Source of the DNA: an uncultured Planctomycetota bacterium
Lineage (GTDB): Bacteria; Planctomycetota; Planctomycetia; Isosphaerales; Isosphaeraceae
DNA: 64,000 nt
Assembly: GCA_963845755.1 (NCBI GenBank)
Contig: CAWJTV010000039.1
Coordinates: forward strand, 96,001-160,000
Reading direction: 5' to 3'
The notes beneath the pieces were generated by a model. That model was not told the origin of the DNA. It saw nothing but the letters and a program-made list of their open reading frames with translations, and did no database searches. Both the position numbers and the translations under genes were made by a program. Positions within the stretch are counted from its first letter, which is position 1. Every line of letters starts with the position of its first letter. Positions 2,611 through 37,217 of the stretch are shown here, piece by piece.

Positions 2611-2766
2611 GGGCCGCCGGGGAAAAAACCTCAAGTGTCAAAGGGCACCGGCAGATACGGATTTCCCCTTGCAATCGGTTCAAGCCGGTGAACCCCCTGC
2701 GCCGATCGAATGGCTGTTGCTCGGCCGGGCGGATTGCCGGTTCGAGTGGGGCGGAGATCGGTGCCC

Positions 2767-4644
2767 ATGTCCTTGTGGTGGAACCGGATGTTCTCTCGCG
2801 ACTTCTGCCGTCGGGTTCGGTTTCTCGCCGGGATCGGGGCGGCGGCGGCGAGCCTGCTGATGGCCGGCGGATGGGCCGATTCGGAGCGATCCGGGCGCCC
2901 GGCCGCGGCCGAGGAGTTCTGGAGACCGGGCGTCCCCCGGGCGATCGCGGTTCGCGACGGCCGGGCGAGATTTCGGGTGGCAGCTCCTCCGCATTCGCAG
3001 ACACTCGTGGTGGTCTCGGCCCTGGCGCGATCTCCCGGCCCGTTCGCGATCCACCTCTCGGCGAACCCGGTGCCGGCGGCAACGATCCCGACGCTTGCCG
3101 ACGACGGCCCGCGGCGCGCCCCCGGCTCAGGGCGCCGGAATTGCCGCCGACCCCCGATCCGGTCGACCACTTGCCCCCGCAGCACCGATCTTTTCACATG
3201 ATGATCCACGAAGCGGATTCAGCGACCTCGAGCAACTACGCGCCGGTCCGTGGCGTTCTCAAAGGGGTCGGACGGAGGGTCCAGGTCTATGTCGCCGCGG
3301 AAGACGCCGAGACCGTCGATCGCGCGCTGATCAAGGACCTCATTACCACCTTCGATGACCGCATCCACCCCTTGACCTCGGCCGGGTTCGGGGCGGCGCG
3401 ACCTGGACGGCGACGGACGGTTCACCATCCTCCTCTCGAGCCGGCTCGGACAGCTCGGGGGCGGCCGGCATGCCGTTAACGGATTCGTCAGAGTGGCGGA
3501 CCTCGATCCGTTGCTGCCATCCCCCTTCGGCAATCATTGCGACATGATGTACTTGAACGCCTCGCTCAAGGCCGGTCCTTACGCGCGCACCGTCCTGGCC
3601 CATGAATATATGCATGCGGTTTCGTATACGGAGAAGTGCTCGAGACGGGCCTCGGCCGGCGAGCCGTGCGTGGACGAGGAGGGATGGCTCGACGAGGCGA
3701 TCGCCCACCTGGCCGAGGATCTGCACGGGTTTTCCACCGCGAACCTCGATTATCGGGTCAGCGCGTTCCTCTCGCGGCCCGAGTCCTATCAACTGGTGGT
3801 CGATGATTACTTCGCGGCGGACCTGTTCCGGAGCCACGGGAATCGGGGAAGCACCTACCTGTTCCTGAGGTGGTGCGTCGATCGATACGGGCCCCGGCTG
3901 ATCCCCGCGCTGGTGCATTCGACGCGGCGGGGCGTGGCCAATCTCGAGGCGGCGACCGGCACGACGTTCGCGGAGCTCTATCGACGTTGGTCGCTGGCGC
4001 TGTACCTCAGCGGGATGGATCCGCCCCAGGAGAGTCCGGCGGCGTCCCGCGACGGCTTCGTGTCGACCAACCTGCGAGCGCCGCTCGCGGACTGGGAGCT
4101 TGCCGGTCCGCGATCGACGCGGATGGTGGCCGGTGGCCCCGCGGAGCATTGGAATGCGTCGGGGACCAGCAGCCATTTCATCGTGATCGAAGGGGCGACG
4201 GTCGGCGCCGTGGAAGTCGAGGTCGTCGGACCGCCTGCGGCCCAGCTCCAGGTGACGGCCCTCCCGCTCGGATCGGACCGGGCTCGGCTGGCCTTATCGT
4301 TGCGTTCGAGCGTCGGGCCCGACGGCGGCCTGTGCATCCAGGCCAAGGTCGCGGAACAGCGCGGGATTCCCGTCCGGATCTCGGCTCTGGCCTGGGAGCC
4401 ATTGATCCCTGGTCCTTGTCCCCAGTCCGACGGCTTCCGAGCGGGGCGCCTCGACATGCTGGGTGTCGCCTCCGCCTTCGGGACTTCGGCGGTCCCGGCG
4501 AACGGCGCGATCGAATCCCGGCCGATTCTACTGACCCACATCCCGCGCGGGAGCGGCCCGATGGTCGTGAAGGTCGTCGGGACCGACGACCGGGGACGTC
4601 GCGTCAGTGCCTGGGCCGATCTGAACCCGGTCGCGGAGCCCTGA
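2767..4644 (+). CDS. Secreted zinc metallopeptidase-like protein (M30/hyicolysin-like), frameshifted
   Basis: HEYMH (HExxH) followed by WLDEAIAHLAE; N-terminal signal region; pieces in three frames. Confidence 0.7.
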
Positions 4645-4678
4645 GTCGCCGTGAAGCGACCCCATTCGTTCTCATCTC

Positions 4679-4955
4679 TCAGCGTGCGAACGGATCGACG
4701 GGGAAATCCAGGCCGTCCAGGATCGCCCGGAATGCCGGATCCGAACGGATCGGGTCGAAGAGCGGCTCGTTCTTCAATCGGGCGGCGTCTTTGATGCCGT
4801 CGGCGACCGCCTGGTGGAGCACGGCGACGGCATCGGCCATGAATCGCCGGCGTCGCTGCTCGAGTTGTTGCGCATCGAGCTTGGTCGGGTACTTGCCGGC
4901 GAGTCCCGCCTTACGGGCGTAGTCGACGGATATGTCGTAGAGTATCTCATTGTTG
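4679..4955 (-). pseudogene. Orphan C-terminal fragment typical of planctomycete TPR-containing Ser/Thr kinases
   Basis: AVAVLHQAVADGIKDAARLKNEPLFDPIRSDPAF...FPVDPFAR terminal motif with no upstream kinase or TPR region. Confidence 0.55.
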
Positions 4956-5209
4956 ACTATGAACTTACTTCCGAGACTCACCGCCTCGCAACGGGTTCGA
5001 GCGGTCGTGTTCTTGCGTCCATGTGAATCGCTCCGGCGATTCGTGCTGGAAAAACTTTGGATCGAGTTTGTCCGTTCGCGAGCGCATGGCGCGGTCTCTT
5101 TGGTGTTGACGACGTTGCGACGGGCGGGGAGTTCACCGGGACGAGCCCGCGCATCTCCGCTAGATGATGTTGAAGCCGCGAGAGTTTTCCATCCCGGGAG
5201 ACGTGGATC

Positions 5210-8200
5210 ATGCTACGCGCGCATCGTGGGGTATCGCATCGCAGGGCTCATCGGCACGGCCGTTCACTCCATGTCTTCCTCGAGGCCCTCGAGCCTCGGA
5301 TCGCGCTGAGCACGTTTAATGTTTCCACCGAGACCGAACTGCGCTCCGCCATCGCTGCATCGGACAGCAACAGCTCCAGCAGCAACACCATCAACGTGGC
5401 CAGCTCGATCACGCTGAACGACGCAAGTGCTGGCCAGCTCGAGATCGAGAACACCTCGAGCACGCCCAAGACCCTGACGATCGTGGGCCAGGGGACATCG
5501 CCGTCGGACGCGGTGATCTCGGGCTCGTTCAACCTGGAAGACCCGGATCTTCGAGATCGTGGGGACGGGATCGTTGACCGTGACGGTCGTGTTCAAGGAC
5601 CTGGAGATCAAGGGGGGCAACGCGAAGGACGGCGGTGTCCTGGGCGGGAACGCGGCCCTGGGGGGCGGCCTGTTGATCGATGGTGAGCAGGTGACGCTCA
5701 GCCATGTGACCGTGTCGTCCGATGGCGCGACGGGCGCGACCGGCACCGCGGGCGCGGCGAGGAACAGCGGCAAGGCCGGGGGTCTCGGCGGCAATGGCGG
5801 CTACGCCCGAGGCGGCGGCATCTACCTGGCGAGCGGCCAACTGAGCCTGATCGATTCCACCATCCAGGACGACAGGGCCAGGGGGGGCATGGGGGGTCAG
5901 GGTGGCGTCGGCGCGAGCGGGGCCTCCGGAGCCCACGGCGCGGCCGGCGGCGTCGGAGTTGACGGCAAGACCGGCGGTACGGGCGCGGCCGGCGCTCGCG
6001 GCGGGACCGGCGGCGCCGGGGGATCGGCCGCGGGCGGGGGGATCTACCAGGCCGGTGGTCAACTCAGCCTGGTCAACTCTCAGGTGGGCGACGACGGGGC
6101 GACCGGCGGGACCGGCGGCGCCGGCGGTGCGGGCGGCAGCGGCGGCCGGGGTGGCAACGGCGGCTCGGGTGGGAGCGGTCTCAGCGCGGCGACGGCCGGC
6201 GGCCGGGGGGCCAAGGGGGCCGCCGGCGGGGCTGGTGGCGATGCGGGCCAGGGTGGCAACAGCGGTCCGGCGGGCCGCGGGGGCAACGCATCCGGAGGCG
6301 GGCTGTACATCGCCTCGGGCACCATGACGTTGTCGGGTGGGAAATTCGACTCCAATACCGTCCTGGCGGGCGTCGGGGGCGCCGGGGGGACCGGTGGCCC
6401 TGGCGGCGAGCCCGGGGAGGGCGGACCCGGAGGCCATGGCGGCACCGGCGGTGCCGGCAAGGGCTCGGGAGACGTCGGGGGCGCCGGGGGGACCGGCGGG
6501 GCCGGCGGCGCCGGGGGCAAGGCGGGTGCCCGGGGGCAAGGGCGGCGCCGGGGGCACTGGCGGCTTGGCCCAGGGGGCCGGGATTGACCTGGCGAACGGC
6601 CAGGCCAGCGTGAAGACCGGATCGTTTATCGGCAACAACGCCGACGGGGGGCTCGGCGGCGTGGGCGGTGTGGGCGGTCAGGGTGCGCTGGGAGCGGTCA
6701 CCGGTGGTGGTGAGGGAGGTCGTGGCGGGGTGGGCGGCATGGGCGGCCCATCAGCCGCGGGCGGACCCGGCGGGGCCGGTGGGCCGGAAGGTCGCGGTCT
6801 CCCCGGCGGTAACGGCGGTGCGGGCGGACCCGGCGGCAACGGAGGAATGGCCGAGGGCGCTGCGATCTTCGTCGCGGGCGGCACCTTCAACCTGACCAAC
6901 TCGGTCCTGGGGGAGGATAGGGCCGTCGGGGGAGCCGGAAAGGCCGGTGGCGGCGGTGGTGTCGGTGGCGATGGTGGCGGCGGCGGCCTCGGTGCCGGCG
7001 GCGCCGGCGGTGGCGGCGGTGCTGGAGGTGGCCCTGGCGCCCAGGGCCACGCCGGTCCCGGCGGTGCTGGCGGTGCCGGCGGCGGCGCGGGGATCGTCGG
7101 TTCCGGGGGCGCGGGCGGCGCGGCGGGATCGTCGGGTACCGGCGGTGATGCCCATGGTGGCGGGATCTACGTGGCCGGCGGCACGATGACCCTGACGCTC
7201 GTCAGCGTGAATAATGAATCGATCGTGGGTGGCGCTGGCGGCGGCGCGGTCAACAGCAGCAGCGGTTTCGGCAGCTCGGACGGCGCCGGCGGCGCCCCGG
7301 GCGGCGCCGGGGGCGCAGGCGGCAATGCCGCCTGGGGTGGCCAGGGCGGCACGGGTGGAAACGGCGGCGCCTACAGCTCTTCCAGCAACCCGGGTTATAA
7401 CGGCAACGGCGGGACCGGCGGCGCCGGCGGCCTCGCCGGCGAGGCCGCCAAGGGCGGCGCCGGCGGAGCTGGTGGGAATGCCTCGGGCGGCGGGCTCTAC
7501 GTGGCGACGGGCCAGGTGACCTTGGCCGGCGTGCAGGTCTCCGCCAATACCGCGACGATCGGCGACGGGGCCAACGGCGGCCCCGGGGGTGCGGCCGGCG
7601 CCGCCGGGACCGGAGGGCAAGTCAGCGCCGCTCTCGGCGGCGCCGGCGGCCTCGGCGGCAACGGCGACCGGGGCGACGGCACCACCGGCAAGGCGGGTCC
7701 CAGAGGGGCCCTCCCAACCGCCGGCGTCCCGGGATCGCCCGGCGTCGCCGGGACCAATGGCACGGCTGGCACCGCCAGCGATGCCGAGACCTTCGGCACC
7801 TTCACCCAGCAAACGCTCCAGCTCGTCGCGACCACCCCGCTCCCCAGCACCATCGCGCCCTTCACCGTCTTCGGCCTAACGGTCGCCCTGGAAAACGCCC
7901 AGGGTCAGGTTGACACCAATTTTGATGGCAGCGTGACCTTGAAACTGACCAGCAATCCCGACACGGGCTTCCTCAGCGGCAATACCACCGTGACGGCGCA
8001 GAACGGCGTGGCGACCTTCTCCGATCTCAGTATCGGCGTGAACGGCAACGATACCCTGACCGCGACCACCACCGGGGTCTCCTCGTCCCCGGTTCCGATT
8101 GTCGTTCAGTTACCGACACCAACGCCCACTCCTACACCAACGCCCACCCCCACACCAACGCCCACCCCCACGCCGACACCGACGCCGACGCCCACCCCCA

Positions 8201-8652
8201 CACCGGTACCGACTCCCACGCCGCCCACGATCATCGGCGAGCAACCCCTGTTCACACGCAAGCTCAACAAGAAGCACAAGCCGGTGGGCAAGCCGGTGCT
8301 TACGGGTTTCGAGCTGGTGTTCAGCGAGGCGATGAATGCCGCCACCGCAGGAAACGCGAGCAACTACCAGGTGAATTGGATCTCCTCCAAGAAGGTGAAG
8401 AGGAAGCCCGTGCAGATCCTTCATCCGCTCTCGTTCCGCGTGCACTACAGCGAATCCAACGATTCGGTGAGCTTGCTCCTGCTCGGTAAACAGGCGTTTG
8501 CCAGGGGAGGCCAGATCACAGTCGTCGCCGGGCCGCCCGGTGGAGTCCGCAGCGCCTCGGGCGTCTTGCTGGACGGCGACGATGAGGGGATTGGCGGCGA
8601 CAACGGCGTGTTCCCCGTCCTGCCGAAAGCGCGCGGGATCGAGCGGGGATAG
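5210..8652 (+). CDS. Large glycine-rich (PE_PGRS-like repeat) surface protein with LEPR-xLL N-terminal motif and Pro-Thr linker; frameshifts near 5530 and 6535
   Basis: LEALEPRIALS motif; recurring GGGIY/GGGLY units separated by GGxGGxGG tracts; Ig-like segment; (PT)n; C-terminal LDGDDEGIGGDN. Confidence 0.8.
8113..8226 (+). repeat. Coding Pro-Thr repeat linker
   Basis: PTPTPTPT... encoded by degenerate ccNacN hexamers. Confidence 0.9.
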
Positions 8653-8669: not shown

Positions 8670-9522
8670 TCATTGTCCCGGGGTGCTCGCTGCGACCTGC
8701 CGGCTGATGATCGTCTGGGGCTTCAGAGGTGTCGTCTCACCCGGGAGGAATTCGACCGCCCAGACGACCGCCTTGTCGAGCCTCGCCTCCAGGCCGCCGG
8801 CGGTGGCTCGGGCGAAGGTGTACTGCCAGCGCGGGCTCCCGTCCTGGCGAACTGCTTCCAGCAGGAGGATGGCCTCCGGGTCCGTCCCCTGGACGAAGCC
8901 AAACACGCCGCTATCGATCCAATCGGGGTCGGGGCTCTGCGCCTTGCCGGGCTCGGCACGGTAAAGCGGTTTGGCGAGCATGCGCAGGTCTTCGCGGTCC
9001 GATCGGTCGGCTTTCAATCCGGTCATCTTGACCTGGAAGCGGTCGGCGAGGACCTTCATCTGCCGGAGCCGGCCGGCCGGGGACGCGGCGGGCGCGGGGG
9101 CTCCGGGAAGGTCCTTGTACGCGACTCCGGGGACCTTCGGCGACCAGATGACGCGGCCCTCCTGGCGCGCTTCCATTTTCGCGCCCCGCGACAGGGACAC
9201 CAACTCGTGGGTGATGTACCCATACCACGGGTAAACGCTGGCCGAAGCCTCGGGCCGCCCCTTGTTGGTCCACAAGACGAACACGCCGTCCGCTTCCTGC
9301 TTCCCGCGTATCGAGTTACCCCAGCGCAGGACGGCCTGCGGCTTCATCGGTTCCGTGGCGCTGGTGTCGACGAACACCTCGTACCAGCCGATCGACTCCT
9401 CCACCTGCGCCTTGAGGGTCTTCGGCTCCACCTTGTCCCACGACCTGGCCGCGCAATCGCGCAGGGCCGGAGGAAAGCAGCACGCACGCCAGGGTGAGGA
9501 TCCAGTCGCGTCGATTGCTCAT
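8670..9522 (-). CDS. Secreted hypothetical protein (frameshift near 9445)
   Basis: Signal peptide MSNRRDWILTLACVLL joined to a 253-aa ORF containing LRMLAKPLYR and FVQGTDPEAILLLEA. Confidence 0.7.
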
Positions 9523-10331
9523 GATGGTGACCTCTCAGGAGGATGACCATGTGGCACATTGCCCGGAGGGAGTAGGCGAACGCCGCACCAGACCTGCATC
9601 GTATCCGGCCGGCTGGTCAGCCGGAAAGGGGGCGATCCCGTGCGCGCGGTCCGTCGCGAATCCGGCCCGGCTCGCCGGGTCCTCGGCTCATGGCGTCACA
9701 GAACGCATCGACGGGAAGGAGTGCGTCCCATCCGCCGGCCTCTGTCTCCCTTGTATATTCATCGTGACCAGTTGGTCTTCCATACTGGTCCCTGTGTCGT
9801 GAGGAGTGCTGGTCCTCCTTCCCTGAGGCTTTGACCTCTTCGGGAAGATGGCTCTCTCCGGCTTGGGTCCGGGATTTTGGTACATCTTGCGGCCTGGACC
9901 GCTGATCACAAGGATCGCCTTGCCCAAGACCTCCGGAGGAGACTCACGCCTCCTGCGACACCTGTGGCTCTGAGCGTCTCAACGTCTCCTCTTGCCGGAG
10001 GTCCCCATGTCCGCCACCGGACGGGGGCTCGATGCCCGGAAGCGGAGTCGGGGCCGCGCAAATCCGACCAGCATGACGAACGATCTTGGACGCCAGCGAC
10101 GGAAATCGAGCACCCCCACCTCCGGGACTGATGCCTCACCTCGCGAGGGTTTGACGCTGGTGAAACGGACCGGTGCCGCGGTATCATGTGAGGATGGCGA
10201 TCGCCCGAACAGTGAACGCCTGACGATCATCGTAGGCGATGTCTTACGAGTGTCCTATGTGTAAAGCCTCAATACTCCTATCGCATCAATGAAATCCGAG
10301 ACGTCGAATAACGACTTACGTCAAATTTGTG

Positions 10332-10365
10332 GTGTAAAGCCTCGATTAGTGTTGAGACTTGCCAG
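10332..10365. other. Putative recombination site A (left boundary of cassette array)
   Basis: gtgtaaagcctcgatt-ag-tgttgagacttgccag; right half matches sites C and E. Confidence 0.55.
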
Positions 10366-10389
10366 TCAGGCACCGTGAAGAGCCGACCT

Positions 10390-10911
10390 ATGCGACTGCC
10401 CCGGATGACGACAAGGCGGTGGATGGTCGCGATCCTCGCCGTAGGGCTTACGATGGCGGCTACGGTCAAATTGATACGGCTGTCCCAGGCAGCCCAGCGT
10501 TATCGACTCAGGGCCCAAGAATACTCAGCGATAGCGATTATGTGGAAGAGACATCACACGGGATTCCGGAATGAAGCTGATCGCTGGAGAAAGGCGGGCC
10601 ATCAGGAACTCGCCGAGTTATACGAATTCGTTCGGTCGAACGGGGAAGCCGCTGAGTCGTGCGCGAGGGGATGGCAAGAGAAATACGAATACGCCGCCTC
10701 GCATCCGTGGATCGGGGAACCGAGACGGGCGCCGGGCACCTACGTCGATCAGCCCTCCAGCTGCGCGACGAGTCAGGCATCTCTTGGGGCGAAGGTGTCA
10801 GTAGCTTTCGCGGCCACGATTGCCGTTGCCTTATTCATAATCATGTGGACTCGCCGATTTGCAGACTCAGAACCCTCTCATACCGAGCCGGCCGTGAGCT
10901 GTGAACTATAG
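10390..10911 (+). CDS. Hypothetical membrane protein, MRLPRMTTRRWM type (cassette 1)
   Basis: MRLPRMTTRRWMVAILAVGL...KYEYAASHPW; stop codon lies in the centre of site B. Confidence 0.7.
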   Translation: MRLPRMTTRRWMVAILAVGLTMAATVKLIRLSQAAQRYRLRAQEYSAIAIMWKRHHTGFRNEADRWRKAGHQELAELYEFVRSNGEAAESCARGWQEKYEYAASHPWIGEPRRAPGTYVDQPSSCATSQASLGAKVSVAFAATIAVALFIIMWTRRFADSEPSHTEPAVSCEL

Positions 10912-10925
10912 ATCAGATGCTCCAG
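10892..10925. other. Putative recombination site B
   Basis: ccgtgagctgtgaact-at-agatcagatgctccag; reverse complement contains tctgatctatagtt, identical to site D. Confidence 0.6.
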
Positions 10926-10967
10926 GTGATGTCCGGGGCGCCAAGCGCTTTGATCGAGGAGAGGCTC

Positions 10968-11372
10968 ATGTTGACACCCGAGTCCCCAGGGCCAAACGAC
11001 GCCCCCTCTGGCGGTCGGCTCGTCTGGCTGGATGACGATGCCTTCGAGAAGCTCTTTCCCAAGACGACCATAGACCACCTCCTCTCCGAGGAGGAACGGC
11101 AGAAAGCAGAGCGGGAGCGGAAGGAATTCGAGGCCGTAGGCAGGACGCTGTTCCTGAAAGATATGGCGGAAGTCTTACCGGAGGCGGAACTCTATGCGAT
11201 TGCCTACGAAGTGATGTGCGGGTCGATTGCCTCCGGCGTGGTAAGCCCGAATGAGATCCGAGAGCAGTTGTCGATGCTCCACGGGCCTCTTTACCCGGTC
11301 ACCCCTATCATCCGAGAGGCGTATGAGGACGCACTGGCGGGTCGTCCCCCGAGACTCTCCTCGACGCTGTGA
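10968..11372 (+). CDS. Hypothetical protein (cassette 2)
   Basis: GAGGAG RBS before ATG; ends IREAYEDALAGRPPR; stop immediately precedes site C. Confidence 0.7.
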   Translation: MLTPESPGPNDAPSGGRLVWLDDDAFEKLFPKTTIDHLLSEEERQKAERERKEFEAVGRTLFLKDMAEVLPEAELYAIAYEVMCGSIASGVVSPNEIREQLSMLHGPLYPVTPIIREAYEDALAGRPPRLSSTL

Positions 11373-11406
11373 GCGCAAAGTCTGATTCATAGTTGAAACT
11401 TGCCAT
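11373..11406. other. Putative recombination site C
   Basis: gcgcaaagtctgattc-at-agttgaaacttgccat. Confidence 0.65.
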
Positions 11407-11485
11407 TCGGGCTCCGGCCCGGAGGCGAAGCGTAAACGGTGATCCAGAAGCGAGATTTTATGGTCAAGCCCAGGAGAGCCGTGCC

Positions 11486-12286
11486 TTGGATGCCCACCTT
11501 CGAGACATTTACGAAGCAGACATTGACGGCCCGGGGGACCTGTCGCTCAAAAAAGACGCTCCCACGACGCGTGCGCCCTGGTTGCTTGTCGGCATTGCGC
11601 TCATAAGCTTGGGGTGGGCTGCTACGTCGATCTTTCTGTTCATCCAGGCGGAGCAAGTACGACGTCCGACAGCTCACCTCCTGAGCACCCCGGATGAGTT
11701 CGACCACCCCGTGCGGCCGTCGGCCGTTAGACCACTGTTCGCTGACATACCTGCCCCGGTTCGGAGGAAAGGGTTGCCAGGGTCTGAGGTCAGCCTCGCT
11801 TCCGACGTGAGAGCAGCCGAAGAGCGAGGCGGCGACGCTCTATGGACATCCCACGAGGCGTTCGGCGTTCACCCCACGAGATCGCAGACATCGACTTCGG
11901 ATGGCTTGAAGCGGCAGGTCTGCCCCGGTCGGGAAATCGACGGCTGGTTGATGAAGGTGAACTGGTCGATCCTGCGCGGAGCCGGAAGCTCCAAGTACAA
12001 CTACACTGGACATCCCGAAGTCTACGAGCTAACCCTACGTTTTCCCGAGGATCTTGCGGGCTCCGAGGTCTGGCTCTGGGGTCACAACTACGACTTCGGG
12101 GCTAGGAAGTTCACGTGCCCCAACCAGAAGTTCGAGGGCGTCAAGGACGGGGATTGGGTGAGGGTGTTCGGCGTCCTGCGGACGACGTCCCGGATGGAAT
12201 GGGACCGAACGAAAACCGGTGAGTTGCTTTCTCTGGGCGAGATGATCATTTCAGACATACGGATAGTGGATGCAATAAAGGAGTAG
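11486..12286 (+). CDS. Hypothetical single-TM protein, possible C-terminal OB-like domain (cassette 3)
   Basis: AGGAG RBS then TTG; TM segment WLLVGIALISLGWAATSIFLF; GVKDGDWVRVFGVL. Confidence 0.65.
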   Translation: MDAHLRDIYEADIDGPGDLSLKKDAPTTRAPWLLVGIALISLGWAATSIFLFIQAEQVRRPTAHLLSTPDEFDHPVRPSAVRPLFADIPAPVRRKGLPGSEVSLASDVRAAEERGGDALWTSHEAFGVHPTRSQTSTSDGLKRQVCPGREIDGWLMKVNWSILRGAGSSKYNYTGHPEVYELTLRFPEDLAGSEVWLWGHNYDFGARKFTCPNQKFEGVKDGDWVRVFGVLRTTSRMEWDRTKTGELLSLGEMIISDIRIVDAIKE

Positions 12287-12307
12287 ACCCAGGACGACGA
12301 CGCGTAG

Positions 12308-12341
12308 GTGGCACGTCTGATCTATAGTTGGTGCGGACAGG
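12308..12341. other. Putative recombination site D
   Basis: gtggcacgtctgatct-at-agttggtgcggacagg. Confidence 0.65.
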
Positions 12342-12511
12342 TGGGCGCGGGACCATCCAGGACGTGGAAAGAGTGATCCAGCTCATAGATGATATCATGA
12401 GGGAGAACCATGTCACCCTGTCTTCGGATACTAGCAGGGATCGGTCAAATCTCTTCTACATGTTAAATTGTTTCGATTTTGGTAATGGGTGCGCTTTAGG
12501 AGGACCCCAGG

Positions 12512-13760
12512 ATGTGGCGAGTCGTTTCGGTCTTTCTGCTCTTCGGAAGCGCCTCGTTGGCACTCTGGGCTCGCGACGAACCACCGCCGGGACCCAGAAC
12601 GCCGCCGGAGCAGTATCGGGCGCTGGTCGGGGAACACCAGGAGGCGGAGCGCCAGTTCTGGGGAACTTATCGGAAGATCAAGGCGCCCGTCGAACGGCGA
12701 AAGTTCTTCGCAGAGCGGTTTCCCCAACCTGGGCAGTACATCTCTCGGTTCCTCGAGATCGCCCGATCGGCCCCCGAGGACCAGGCGGCCGTCGATTCCC
12801 TCATCTGGATCGTGAAGAACGGCGGTTGCGACCCGGAGGTCAACCGAGCGGCCGAGCGGCTCGCGACTAATCATGCCAGCAACAAGAGGCTGGGCATGAT
12901 CGCCCCGAGACTGGTCCCCAACCTCGTTTATTCGCTCTCACCGTCGGCGGAGAAACTGCTCCGTGCGATCATTGCACAGAACCCGGACCGGGTCGCCCAG
13001 GGCCAGACCTGCATGGCTCTGGGCGAGTACCTCAAACGCGAATCCGAACTGGTCCTGCGCCCTGAAGGGAGATACCCAGCAGGCCCGGCAATTACAGTCG
13101 TATTACAAGATGTACGGTGCCGACGAGGCATCATTCCGGTCTGTCCGGGCATGGAATCCCGACGACTTGGCCAGGCAATCCGAAGCGATGTTCGTGCGAG
13201 CCGCAAAGAGGTACGCCGATGTGAGCGATTTCCTCCGCATCGTGGACATGGGAGCCCATGCCAAACTATTTGCAAATCCCAACCTGGGCATCGGCAAGCC
13301 GGCTCCCGAAATCATCGGTGAGGATATCGAGGGCAACCCGTTCAAGCTCAGCGACCTCAAGGGCAGGGTGATCGTGCTCCTCTTCTGGGGTGATTGGAAC
13401 GGGCCGAGCCGGACCTTGTACCCGCTCGCGCGGTCCCTGGTGCAGAAGATGGAGCGCAGGCCCTTCGCCCTGCTGGGCATCAATAGCGACAAGGACAAGG
13501 CGAAGCTGAGCCAGAGGATCAAGGACGAGGATATCAACTGGCGCTCGTGGTGGGACGGGGGCAGCGATCATGGGGCGATCGCTGCTGGGTATGGTATCCC
13601 CGGCTGGCCGACCATCTACATTCTCGATCACCACGGCATCATCCGCCACAAGTTCCTCGGCCCCCCGGATGACGAGACCTTCGATCTCGAGAAGGTCATC
13701 GACGAACTGACGACCGCGGCAATCACGGAGGCCCGTTCGCCCAGGCCGACTACGAAATGA
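12512..13760 (+). CDS. Secreted TlpA/redoxin-fold protein with degenerate active site (cassette 4; frameshift near 13058)
   Basis: AGGAGG RBS, signal peptide, GKPAPEIIGEDIEGNPFKLSDLKGRVIVLLFWGDWNGPSR...GWPTIYILDHHGIIR. Confidence 0.8.
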
Positions 13761-13822
13761 GTGACGCTCCCCTCCGGGACGACGAGCCTGATCCACCATT
13801 CGGAGGCCGACCTGCTCGACAG

Positions 13823-13856
13823 GCGCAACGCCTGAATCATAGTTGAGACGTGCCAC
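13823..13856. other. Putative recombination site E
   Basis: gcgcaacgcctgaatc-at-agttgagacgtgccac; 13823-13897 is 60/75 identical, ungapped, to 11373-11447. Confidence 0.65.
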
Positions 13857-13938
13857 TCGGGCCTTGGCCCGGCAGCAAAACGCAAAAGGTGATCCAGAGA
13901 TCAGAGATGCCAGACCTCGGTTCGCGGGAGCCTGCGCC

Positions 13939-14437
13939 ATGGGATCGCCCCGACTTGCGATCGCCCTGACGAAATGCCTGTTCTCAGGGTCGGTCGCATT
14001 GCTCCTCATCGGGATCCTCACCGGCCTGCTCACACCGGCACGCGTGCACTTCATCGGTCCGGCCGATCGGAATCTCCACTTCCAAATCGTCGATCAGTCG
14101 CGGGGGGCACCGGTCGCCGGCGCTCGGCGTGGCGCTCGTCCATCCCTACGATCCTGAGCAGCCACCGATCGAGGGCATCACTGATCGGCAAGGCCGGGTC
14201 GAGTTGCGGGGCCGGTTCACACAGTCCGGAGGGGGCGACACCTGGCATGGTTCACGAGTGACGTACTACACCTATGGTCCCTGGTGCGTCACGGTCCGAG
14301 CCGATGGCTACCGGGATTTGCGCCGTGCCTTGGGGGACCATGCCGCCCCGGGGGATACCCCTAATCAGCTGTTGAACCTAAGCGACCCCGCGCCCTCACC
14401 GATCATCATCAAGATGGATCAGCTCGGGAGCCGCTAA
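13939..14437 (+). CDS. Membrane-anchored carboxypeptidase-regulatory-like domain protein (cassette 5; frameshift near 14125)
   Basis: TM segment, then FQIVDQSRGAPVAGA / GITDRQGRVEL...VTVRADGYR. Confidence 0.65.
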
Positions 14438-14469
14438 CACTGAAGCGAGACGCTGTTCGGTGATGCCCG

Positions 14470-14503
14470 GCTGGAAGGGTGATTCATGAACGACACTTTA
14501 CAT
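14470..14503. other. Putative recombination site F (right boundary of cassette array)
   Basis: gctggaagggtgattc-at-gaacgacactttacat; right half is 12/17 inverted-complementary to the left half of site A. Confidence 0.55.
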
Positions 14504-14974
14504 CAGGCGCGACGATGACCCATCAGGAAAGCGGTGGCGGGCTTGGCCCGCGCTGGTGATGAGTCTCGGGGGAGACGAGTCTCCCTCTCCCCAGACCCCC
14601 TCTACCCACTTCCCTGTTCCGCCAGAGAGGCATGCCAGGAATCGCAGAAGCCTTCGAGATGGCCGCTCACATCCCCGTGGAAGAACGGCCGCACGGAAGA
14701 CGGTGGAGCAGTGCCTCATTACCCAGACCTCCTCTCTGGTCCGGCGGACCGCTCTCAAGTCGCCAGCCGGAGCCAAACCCACGGGCGACCTGCGTCTCGA
14801 ATGGAACTCCCATGCATGCCGTCATCACGCCCCACGGCCCATGACTTTCAAAGGTACATCTTCCCGTTGCCGCGGAGATCGACGTATCGACCGATCGAAA
14901 ATCGAGTTGACCTGCGGCGCGGTCGCCCAGTAGATTAGTCGGGACAACTGCAAATTTTTGCAGAACCAGAATAC

Positions 14975-15388
14975 TTGAGCCATCCGGCCAGATCCGCCCG
15001 ATCGTCATGGCAGTCAAACCTGAATAGTCCCATAATGGTTGCGCTCGTCCTCAGTTTCGGCCTCGTCATTTCCGCCAGCTCGGGACGGCCCTCCATCGCC
15101 CTACCTCTCGATCCAGGGCCGCCCGCCCTCTCCGCGGATGAGATCGTCCTGGTGGGAATGCATTCCCCGATGGATCACGGTCTTCCGAGGCCCCTGACCC
15201 GCGACGGCTTGACCGAAGCGGATGCGGAAGAGGAAGACGACGAGATGGTCGCCCTCCGTCGCGTACTCACCTCATCGGTCCTGAATCTGGCCGTCAAGGT
15301 CCGGCGACAGGACCAGCCCACCGCCTCGCACGACTCGGGAGACGGTCTTCTCCACGAACTGCACTACTCCTGGCAGCTCCTCTGTTGA
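14975..15388 (+). CDS. Hypothetical protein
   Basis: Hydrophobic N-terminal region and acidic EEEDDE tract; no family recognised. Confidence 0.35.
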   Translation: MSHPARSARSSWQSNLNSPIMVALVLSFGLVISASSGRPSIALPLDPGPPALSADEIVLVGMHSPMDHGLPRPLTRDGLTEADAEEEDDEMVALRRVLTSSVLNLAVKVRRQDQPTASHDSGDGLLHELHYSWQLLC

Positions 15389-15747
15389 GTCCGGACCGGA
15401 CTGCGCACTCACCACAATGTTCCCTGTCCCAGCGCCGGGATCGGGGCAAGGTGCCGAGGGGTTGCGAGGTCGCGCGCCGTTGTGAATCATCAGGAGTGGG
15501 GCGCCCGCCGGACGAGTCGTCCCCTCCCGCGAGTCTCTGAAAGAAGCTCAGACGACGGAACTCCACAGGGCGCGAATGCGAACGGCTGGCGGGTTGACGG
15601 GCGGTCTTCTCGTTAAACGGTCGCGTCTCGATGGTGCCGCGCGGGACGAATCCGCCGACTCGAGACCGGCCGATCCCGTTTGGAAGAGCAAAGGCCGCGT
15701 GGAATCCATCCCCAGATCCGATGACTATCGATCAGGAGTAACCTGGT

Positions 15748-27778: not shown

Positions 27779-27916
27779 GAGTCGTCCTCCGTAGGATCCC
27801 TGCGCCGTGCGCGCCTCTGGGGATTCCGAATTCCGGATTCCCGGATCCTTCCCCTTCGGGAATCCGGAATCGCGAATCGGGAATCCCGATGGGGTTGCGG
27901 CCGAAGGACGCGTTAG
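27779..27916. repeat. Dispersed composite repeat, copy 1
   Basis: gagtcgtcctccgtaggatccctgcgccgtgcgcgc + GATTCC/GAATCC heptamer-like tract + gatggggttgcggcc...cgcgttag. Confidence 0.8.
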
Positions 27917-27987
27917 GCAGTAGGTAGTAAACGCAAAACCGCGTTGTTGTTTTACTGCCTACTGCCTACTACATACTGCCCACGCGA

Positions 27988-37016: not shown

Positions 37017-37180
37017 GAATCTCGAATCTCGAATCTCGAATCTCGAATCTCGAATCTCGAATCTCGAATCTCGAATCTCGAATCTCGAATCCCGAATCCC
37101 GAATCCCGAATCCCGAATCCCGAATCCCGAATCCCGAATCCCGAATCCCGAATCTCGAATCTCGAATCTCGAATCTCGAA
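37017..37180. repeat. Tandem heptamer array (GAATCTC/GAATCCC), about 23 units
   Basis: Directly visible; blocks of GAATCTC, then GAATCCC, then GAATCTC. Confidence 0.95.
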
Positions 37181-37217
37181 TTCCCCCTGGGTTCCAGCCG
37201 AAGGCCCCATCCGGAAC

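Follow-up and report, generated by a model that had tools for sequence, protein, structure and literature searches.

Candidate arrays of one-gene cassettes bounded by ~34-bp pseudo-palindromic sites in large Isosphaeraceae genomes

Integrons, the textbook device for collecting and shuffling single genes, owe their definition to a single family of enzymes and a single type of folded site; in the latter, attC, the R'' (RYYYAAC) and R' (GTTRRRY) boxes lie at the two ends of a 57–141-nt site. The pdif (Xer) modules of Acinetobacter plasmids, in turn, are plasmid-borne and are bounded by 28-bp sites (11-6-11) in alternating orientation. In the present work, we analysed a stretch of 64,000 nucleotides (hereafter the window) from an uncultured member of the family Isosphaeraceae (Planctomycetota), i.e., positions 96,001 to 160,000 of the forward strand of contig CAWJTV010000039.1 (assembly GCA_963845755.1), in which five single genes lie between six related sites of ~34 bp.

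Two other described systems are of interest here. The rAID-1 clusters of Bacteroidales are long arrays of small genes with skewed GC content and with intergenic repeats "reminiscent of integrons"; their defining feature is that each cluster starts with a conserved gene for a XerD-family recombinase (Ross et al., bioRxiv 10.1101/471110). The Sin res site has a length of 86 bp, with a crossover dimer and a regulatory dimer at the two ends and HU or IHF midway, site I being cut with a 2-nt stagger (PMC2428073); arithmetic on these figures gives a centre-to-centre distance of ~57 bp. Moreover, in a 2011 survey, dif was not predictable in Planctomycetes (PMC3025954).

Our analysis suggests, with a probability of roughly 0.6, that about 15 arrays of mobile one-gene cassettes are present in the source genome, one of them in the window, and that these cassettes are moved by site-specific recombination in trans. 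The source genome is referred to as G000, and C-numbers after a genome label are contigs of that genome. The non-coding features of the array are the following:

10165..10365, + strand: head element, non-coding, with a conserved core of ~215 nt and ending in site A.
10332..10365, + strand: site A, terminal site of the head and junction to the first cassette; centre TTAG|TG; 19.4 and 21.6 bits.
10892..10925, + strand: site B, single site; centre CTATAG; 16.8 and 16.9 bits.
11373..11466, + strand: bipartite element C, middle of type 1; 5' centre at 11391 (TCATAG), 3' centre at 11448 (GGTGATCCAGAA).
12308..12395, + strand: bipartite element D, middle of type 2, GC-rich, with two GGCGCGG(G)AC repeats (direct-repeat family D3).
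13823..13916, + strand: bipartite element E, middle of type 1; 5' centre at 13841, 3' centre at 13898.
14470..14503, + strand: site F, single site and the last of the array; centre TCATGA; 18.3 bits on the + strand and 14.4 bits on the - strand.

An initial annotation, made from the letters of the window alone, had described six related, pseudo-palindromic ~34-bp sites with exactly one gene in each interval. All six sites (A to F) lie where it had placed them, and each of the intervals harbors one open reading frame (ORF) on the + strand, so the observation of six related sites with one-gene intervals is confirmed. When aligned on their centres, the sites are identical on average at 18.6 of 34 positions (range 12–28), compared to 9.3 ± 2.7 for random pairs of 34-mers drawn from the window, and all six score at least 14 bits with position-weight matrices for a 5' and a 3' site, built from 30 genomic copies. 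The pseudo-palindromic character holds as a dyad signal, which is only modest: from A to F, 9, 8, 7, 6, 9, and 8 of the 16 arm positions are complementary, against a null of 4.4 ± 1.9 (P(≥8) = 0.055), and D is the weakest (6/16) because its right arm is not arm-like. The relationship proposed between the left arm of D and the right arm of E was also found, the two being complementary over 18 nt at 89%, with the outer 11 nt an exact reverse complement. The anatomy, in contrast, had been recognized only in part: there are six ~34-bp sites, but C, D, and E are just the 5' parts of a longer bipartite element (C and E share 80% identity across 76 nt, not 34), and A is the end of the head. The 5' site of element D consists of the left arm plus CTATAGTTG, without a recognisable right arm (29.5 bits, 5' site only), and its 3' site is degenerate, the layout being otherwise that of C and E; the right arm of site F (ACGACACTTTACAT) resembles the one behind the head on C34.

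The alignments of 30 genomic and 22 full copies revealed that the complete element spans 91–95 nt and contains two ~34-bp pseudo-palindromic sites. The 5' site is composed of the left arm gYGYAAnGnCTGATy, the core CATAGTTG, and then a right arm; the middle is either of type 1 (the arm AGACTTGCCAC plus a small GC hairpin) or of type 2 (GCGCGGACAGGCGGGCGCGGGACGAT, with nothing arm-like); the 3' site reads GTGTAACGGGTGATCC-AGAG-ATCAGACTTGCCAG. The 5' and 3' sites are versions of one pseudo-palindrome, idealised as GTGTAAAGyCTGAT-CTATAG-ATCAGrCTTTACAC; many copies score with both matrices and on both strands, and perfect palindromes occur among them (e.g., TCTGATCTATAGATCAGA in C12). Double sites are found at about half of the junctions, and their centre-to-centre spacing is 57 bp in 34 out of 49 pairs and 55–58 bp in 46 out of 49, regardless of the type of middle. 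The first site of a pair has the centre ATAG, follows the upstream stop codon, and holds stop codons in all three frames (cTGAttcaTAGtTGA); the second has mostly AGAG as its centre and stands directly ahead of the ribosome-binding site, 10–25 nt separating its end from the start codon. In the type-2 middle (window 12330–12360 and generally), two direct GGCGCGG(G)AC repeats take the place of the right arm of the 5' site; this middle could be a site for an accessory protein or a promoter.

The head of the window array carries a left-arm motif at 10259–10274; the left arm of the terminal site follows at a distance of exactly 73 bp, and the same spacing is present in 9 of 11 heads. Copies of the head elsewhere in G000 align at 69–89%, and a head profile gave 19 matches at E ≤ 1e-4 in this genome, nine of them being training copies. 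Single-base indels among the heads argue against coding, and their consensus fold is weak (-6.9 kcal/mol).

The initial annotation had proposed a matrix scan of the genome, in which clustering between short accessory ORFs would speak for cassettes and a position upstream of ordinary conserved genes for operators. At a threshold of 16 bits or more, the 5'-site matrix retrieved 90 matches in G000, compared to nine in the reversed genome, and the 3'-site matrix 86 compared to 10; the counts include the 30 training copies. The matches cluster between short, mostly unannotatable ORFs, not upstream of ordinary conserved genes, and 15 clusters (arrays) were examined in G000, the sites of each having all the same orientation. 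A head lies at the upstream end of nine of these clusters and inside one, and no head occurs within 1 kb of the remaining five (C4, C5, C28, C47, and C6). One further cluster (G000:C36:389639-403045) was discarded, its matrix matches being false and falling on regularly spaced repeats ending in GTTTCAATCCTTGTTG; it looks like a large CRISPR array.

The organization of the arrays was then quantified on 86 inter-site intervals of at least 150 bp from 16 arrays in five genomes. The median interval is 648 bp, and an ORF of at least 50 aa in the orientation of the array is present in 84 of them; the forward ORF is longer than the best reverse one in 74 of the 86 intervals, with a median occupancy of 0.78 versus 0.44. 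Most of the products (77 array-orientation ORFs) have no Pfam family; the confident assignments are Imm5_like (one, 4.8e-30), LRR and ankyrin (one each), TPR, HEAT, DUF1877, CarboxypepD_reg (two), and an ECF sigma factor. A further Pfam search on G000 loci yielded DUF6985, PD40, a porin-like protein, and additional LRR proteins.

The element is not restricted to one genome. A covariance model based on sequence only was used to survey 101 genomes of the family, belonging to 53 genera, and the element was found in 29 of these genomes and 16 of these genera. Twenty-one genomes are rich in arrays, with nine to about 40 matches each (among at most 39 candidates scored per genome), and all of these (at least nine copies) have a size of 8.8–16.5 Mb; eight further genomes have one or two matches. 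The largest array viewed (G104:C6:42633-60005) covers ~17 kb and comprises some 25–30 units on one strand, with a head upstream; genes for Cas1 and Cas6 lie 2.6–6 kb past its downstream end (L045, positions 2620–6018). Insertion sequences (ISs) were observed at sites on G000 contig C6: a 1.9-kb IS with a CTAG duplication (G000:C6:46948-48838) is inserted just before the left arm of a site, and one head has a 1.4-kb DDE_3/HTH IS (C6:50198-51625; at least eight copies at 99% identity) directly adjoining the right arm of its terminal site.

The strongest indication of mobility comes from the points at which homology between loci ends. According to the initial annotation, such breakpoints should coincide with the centres of the sites, and relatives should not share the gene order; both expectations agree with what was found. 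Eight boundaries in five comparisons fall at site centres. The window unit from centre B to centre C recurs at 93% identity in G000:C12:136411-136971, the identity running from ctATAGatcag through ttcATAGTTG and ending after CATAGTTG; the upstream genes differ, and the downstream element is of type 1 in the window and of type 2 in C12. In the comparison between G000:C6 and G000:C39:204445, the identity begins at gaaCCATAGG, and the left arms differ. Head alignments stop at the centre of the terminal site, and the right arms beyond it differ yet are arm-like; this is the case of the pairs window/C34 (89%, ending at 10350), C41/C15 (88%), and G000/G067 (79%).

Moreover, a unit of the C41 array (G000:C41:4508-5107) is 92% identical to G001:C25:238047-238646, that is, between species of one genus, with the left break at a 3'-site centre (AGAA) and the right break at the next 5'-site centre. 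In G001, this unit stands beside a different head and different neighbours, and for the porin-like gene that is its neighbour in G000, the 86% homologue is found on a second contig of G001, in a region devoid of sites; hence, two adjacent cassettes of the C41 array lie on different contigs in G001. As for the window array, only its outer flanks match in the same G001 genome, on two different contigs. The gene of the second window cassette (ORF2) has a 72% identical homologue directly behind a head and site in metagenome contig L070, and this cassette is thus known in three contexts, since it follows ORF1 in the window, a different cassette in C12, and a head in L070. Lastly, among high-scoring segment pairs of 180 bp or more between array loci, 12 of the 86 internal ends are, in each of the two sequences, at most 6 bp away from a centre, a condition that only 1.06% of positions satisfy. 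As judged from the loci compared, we take these data to show that cassettes have been exchanged between arrays and between species, with breaks at site centres. Soil-metagenome contigs matching the locus are short and hold 8–14% of the sampled words, and their loose ends correspond to other genomic copies (the C34 head and other elements); no circle junctions or excision joints were retrieved from these short contigs, which speaks neither for nor against excision.

In the explanation that we favour, a cassette begins with the right arm of a site, continues with a short leader and a single ORF, and finishes with the left arm of the following site. An array starts at the ~215-nt non-coding head, which ends in a site, has a second left-arm motif 73 bp upstream, and resembles attI with accessory repeats in position. 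A site-specific recombinase acting on double-stranded DNA and encoded elsewhere in the genome would bind the arms as a dimer and cross over within the central few bases, with excision occurring between two direct sites and insertion at the head or at another site. The length of the dyad sites, the conservation of the 57-bp and 73-bp spacings, and the missing single-strand structure (see below) point to proteins bound to duplex DNA; the breaks at the centres, in turn, suggest conservative site-specific recombination carried out by a trans-acting enzyme.

Several observations weigh against this explanation. Only a small number of boundaries have high identity, and in three of the five comparisons both partners are heads. 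The position of the crossover is resolved to no better than ~4–5 nt including the central AT of the 5' sites, which does not separate a 2-bp from a 6–8-bp exchange. In the type-2 5' sites, D among them, a right arm cannot be recognised and hence no symmetric dimer site is evident, and the assembly has frameshifts in two of the five window genes. No recombinase stands consistently beside the arrays among the 43 PF00589 and 37 PF00239 matches in G000, and the Pfam search on the flanks of 16 G000 loci and of five arrays of other genomes did not reveal any recurrent recombinase neighbour. Furthermore, the one small resolvase gene that lies behind a site, on C6, has an upstream site that is not conserved, and the upstream regions of its homologues are without one.

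The search for the enzyme covered a number of candidates. The window itself encodes no recombinase, in agreement with the initial annotation. No PF00589 match heads any array, the nearest being a fragment 1.3 kb from C4 and an IS91-type integrase 6 kb from C41a; scans of the whole of G000 with PF01797 and TIGR02249 retrieved no recurrent neighbour of the arrays, and the flanks of the five arrays in other genomes hold no recombinase gene apart from one for a Y1 transposase (IS200-like, just upstream of the G082 array). The C6 resolvase was rejected as the cognate enzyme, homologues with at least 70% identity being present in genomes where the element was not found. The divergent ORFs upstream of the C4 and C48 heads were set aside as well, since neither recurs at another place; one of the two is a recombinase fragment. 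On C48, the end of a large serine recombinase gene coincides with the start of the head, and no second such case was found. The tyrosine recombinase of C41 looks like a multi-copy, IS-associated integrase, which we take to belong with IS91, and a DUF1670 pair occurs at only two loci, neither of which is an array.

As to the class of the enzyme, within the favoured explanation a serine recombinase is our tentative first choice, at somewhat less than even odds, given the central dinucleotide and the similarity to Sin res of a ~91-bp unit holding two sites at a distance of 57 bp; from the central dinucleotide we infer, and do not observe, a preference for the serine over the tyrosine class. A tyrosine recombinase is a real possibility, at about one chance in three, and includes the Xer proteins of the host; a host Xer-type enzyme would explain the missing adjacent gene. 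An enzyme of some other kind is rather unlikely, though it deserves to be kept in mind.

In principle, the arrays might instead be clusters of attC sites lacking an adjacent integron integrase (CALINs), whose cassettes are serviced in trans by an IntI encoded in the same genome, and G000 does encode an intact IntI (G000:C3:161245-162186; TIGR02249, 484.9 bits, cut-off 265); a second, broken copy lies at C39:443994-444658. The best matches to the attC boxes, GCGCAAC at the start of the left arm and GTTGAGA in the core, each agree with the consensus at 6/7 positions, but they are only 12 nt apart within one 34-bp site, and reading the 91-nt element at its ends gave no R''/R' pair. The claim that the sites are not attC is corroborated by folding: RNAalifold on 22 elements returned 0 pairs and 0 kcal/mol, and single-strand folding of the same 22 with DNA parameters does not differ from shuffles (mean z of -0.2 for the top strand and -0.3 for the bottom strand), which fits a protein-binding site in duplex DNA. 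An Rfam scan of 9500–15500 retrieved one sub-threshold match only, to an unrelated small RNA. No site or head occurs within 20 kb of intI in G000; a sequence upstream of it on C3 that appeared attC-like by eye has no R''/R' hairpin fold, a strict pattern scan of that region returned no match, and a classical attC array was not confirmed beside the gene. Among the array-rich genomes, 7 of 21 were found to have IntI, compared to 25 of the 80 others, many of these genomes being incomplete, and among the seven it is full-length and without stops only in G000; besides, boundaries also fall at centres that lack GTT. The arrays are therefore independent of the integron integrase, and we regard the CALIN explanation as highly improbable. 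A second alternative is that a short intergenic repeat of the repetitive extragenic palindrome (REP) or miniature inverted-repeat transposable element (MITE) kind spreads alone, the genes not being mobile and the breakpoints deriving from occasional homologous or illegitimate recombination between copies. In favour of this scenario, the element is short, palindromic, and intergenic, it is present in dozens of copies per genome, and a Y1 transposase gene lies beside the G082 array. The copies, though, are not scattered but form same-orientation arrays with one ORF per interval, they have no hairpin propensity, and none of the 10 Y1_Tnp matches in G000 is near an array; homologous crossovers would fall anywhere in a repeat of 34–95 nt, whereas all eight boundaries are at a centre, and the same gene has different neighbours in three contexts. 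We consider this scenario unlikely.

Slightly less credible still, and comparable to each other, are two further explanations. The cassettes may be non-autonomous transposable units, the arms being terminal inverted repeats recognized by a DDE transposase encoded elsewhere, with insertion preferred next to ends already present; in that case, each "site" would consist of two neighbouring ends with a few target bases between them. The outcome in sequence would be indistinguishable from that of site-specific recombination, each arm is in fact the inverted repeat of the other, neighbouring units have a centre of just 2–6 nt between them, and the genome is rich in ISs, some of them in or beside sites. 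Nevertheless, the arrays examined contain no transposase cassette in the array orientation, no autonomous element with such ends was found, the strict single orientation and the fixed 57-bp pairs are not expected of cut-and-paste transposition, and the heads with their 73-bp repeat spacing look like a dedicated platform. Alternatively, the sites may be operators, and the element the shared promoter or 5' leader of a regulon of accessory genes bound by a dimeric transcription factor. Their dyad symmetry is compatible with this, and the 3' site ends 10–25 nt before the start codons, several copies extending into the Shine-Dalgarno region; GGTGATCC is presumably complementary to the 3' end of the 16S rRNA. 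A site of 34 bp with half-sites of 15–16 bp is, however, long for an operator, and regulation accounts neither for homology that stops at centres, nor for cassettes found across arrays and species, nor for 25–30 consecutive copies in one array; the 5' site, following the upstream stop codon and with stops in three frames, is a feature of a junction. The two roles, operator and recombination site, are in any case not mutually exclusive.

Compared with the described systems, the arrays share with integrons and CALINs the single orientation, the compact, mostly one-gene and mostly unannotatable cassettes (median unit ~650 bp), the stops near the downstream site, the special non-coding platform at the upstream end, and the occurrence of the same cassettes in several arrays and species with breaks at the sites. 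They differ from integrons in the site itself, a ~34-bp duplex pseudo-palindrome often doubled at 57 bp versus the single-strand hairpin of 57–141 nt; in the lack of an integrase beside any array examined and a distribution independent of IntI; and in the number of heads, about 13 per genome versus one attI. Similarly to pdif modules and integrative mobile elements exploiting Xer (IMEX), the modules lie between short sites and the recombinase is encoded elsewhere, without a dedicated adjacent enzyme; unlike in pdif, the sites have ~34 bp and one orientation per array, and they are chromosomal. They are unlike REP sequences and their doublets (REPINs) with the associated RAYT transposases, on account of the missing fold signal, the clustering of the copies, and the distance of the Y1_Tnp matches from arrays.

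With rAID-1, the arrays have in common the long rows of small genes, the intergenic repeats, and the skewed GC content, and part of their content may likewise be immunity-like (one Imm5_like and several LRR, Ank, TPR, and HEAT proteins); they differ from rAID-1 in that no XerD-family gene was found at the array heads, the phylum and the repeat are others, and most cassettes here have no recognisable immunity domain. As regards Sin res, the likeness concerns a unit of ~90 bp with dimer-sized sites at its ends, the putative crossover site with its central dinucleotide coming first, and the direct repetition of the units. Sin site II is a direct repeat of half-sites, whereas the second site here is inverted-repeat-like and can also serve as a cassette boundary; res accompanies its own resolvase gene and resolves replicon dimers and does not bound gene cassettes. 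Moreover, resolvases disfavour integration, and the searches in G000 identified no cognate resolvase. A literature search, limited to the top-ranked results, did not retrieve any description of such arrays for this family.

The genes of the window cassettes are the following:

10390..10911, + strand: ORF1, gene of cassette 1, for a 173-aa membrane-anchored protein with no Pfam family above cut-off.
10917..11372, + strand: ORF2, gene of cassette 2, at most 151 aa, no known family.
11486..12286, + strand: ORF3, gene of cassette 3, ~266 aa from a TTG start, the start being uncertain.
12512..13760, + strand: ORF4, gene of cassette 4, thioredoxin-like (AhpC/TSA, 1.1e-15; Redoxin).
13939..14437, + strand: ORF5, gene of cassette 5, in two frames split at about 14126.

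The stop codons fall as the initial annotation had reported, i.e., the TAG of ORF1 is in the centre of B, ORF2 abuts C, and the others end 22–63 nt before the next site; the array is also AT-richer, with a GC content of 0.56–0.61 over 10001–13400 versus 0.64–0.80 upstream. Just upstream of the array region, window 6337–8652 encodes a 771-aa glycine-rich ORF with a long Pro-Thr repeat (GC 0.76–0.80). ORF1 is a member of a recurrent family of small membrane-anchored proteins (MRLPRMTTRRWMV...YHA.LARKYERAA..PWL.VEPDPPEP). Its first 42–57 nt (MRLPRMTTRRWMV; window 10390–10443) recur at about 12 other places in G000 with 82–93% nucleotide identity, each time at the beginning of an ORF; these ORFs differ in length, and several of them are cassettes. 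The stretch is the shared N-terminal anchor of a large paralogous family. For ORF2, no relatives were found in the genome contigs searched, and two loci, one of them informative, were found in metagenome contigs. ORF3 has a 73% identical paralogue in the C28 array. ORF4 is read in two overlapping frames (12512–13321 and 12963–13760), with the switch near 13060–13100, so that it may be a pseudogene or suffer from an assembly error; metagenome contigs over this gene are gap-free at 12846–13032 and do not cover 13033–13359. In ORF5, contigs from three out of four soil-metagenome runs have one base fewer than the window at 14126; its absence would fuse the ORFs 13843–14157 and 14129–14437, and the frameshift is therefore likely to reflect either a mistake in the assembly or variation between strains. 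Elsewhere, a ~155-bp repeat, often in tandem and with well over 100 copies in the genome at 80–96% identity, occurs in the window (~27779–27917 and 37017–37214) and at G000:C28:383638-383792.

The arrays thus reproduce the layout of integrons with a different, duplex site, with no adjacent integrase, and with many platforms per genome. Integron-finding software would probably miss them because it is built on attC hairpins and IntI. It is conceivable, although we hold it at a little below even odds, that they represent a second, independent invention of the integron principle: a genome-wide system with multiple platforms (about 13 heads and dozens of cassettes per genome), with a trans-acting recombinase, either a serine enzyme with a Sin-like two-site logic or the host Xer, working on duplex palindromes, and distributed in many large-genome members of the family, where it would coexist with IntI and yet be independent of it. 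If the enzyme is found, this would be a new site-specific recombination system with a defined site of ~34 bp, and it would make thousands of cassette genes whose function is unknown accessible to mining. Lastly, the arrays occur almost only in the 9–16-Mb genomes of the family searched, and they may in this way help to explain how these genomes grew and how they were stocked with accessory genes.

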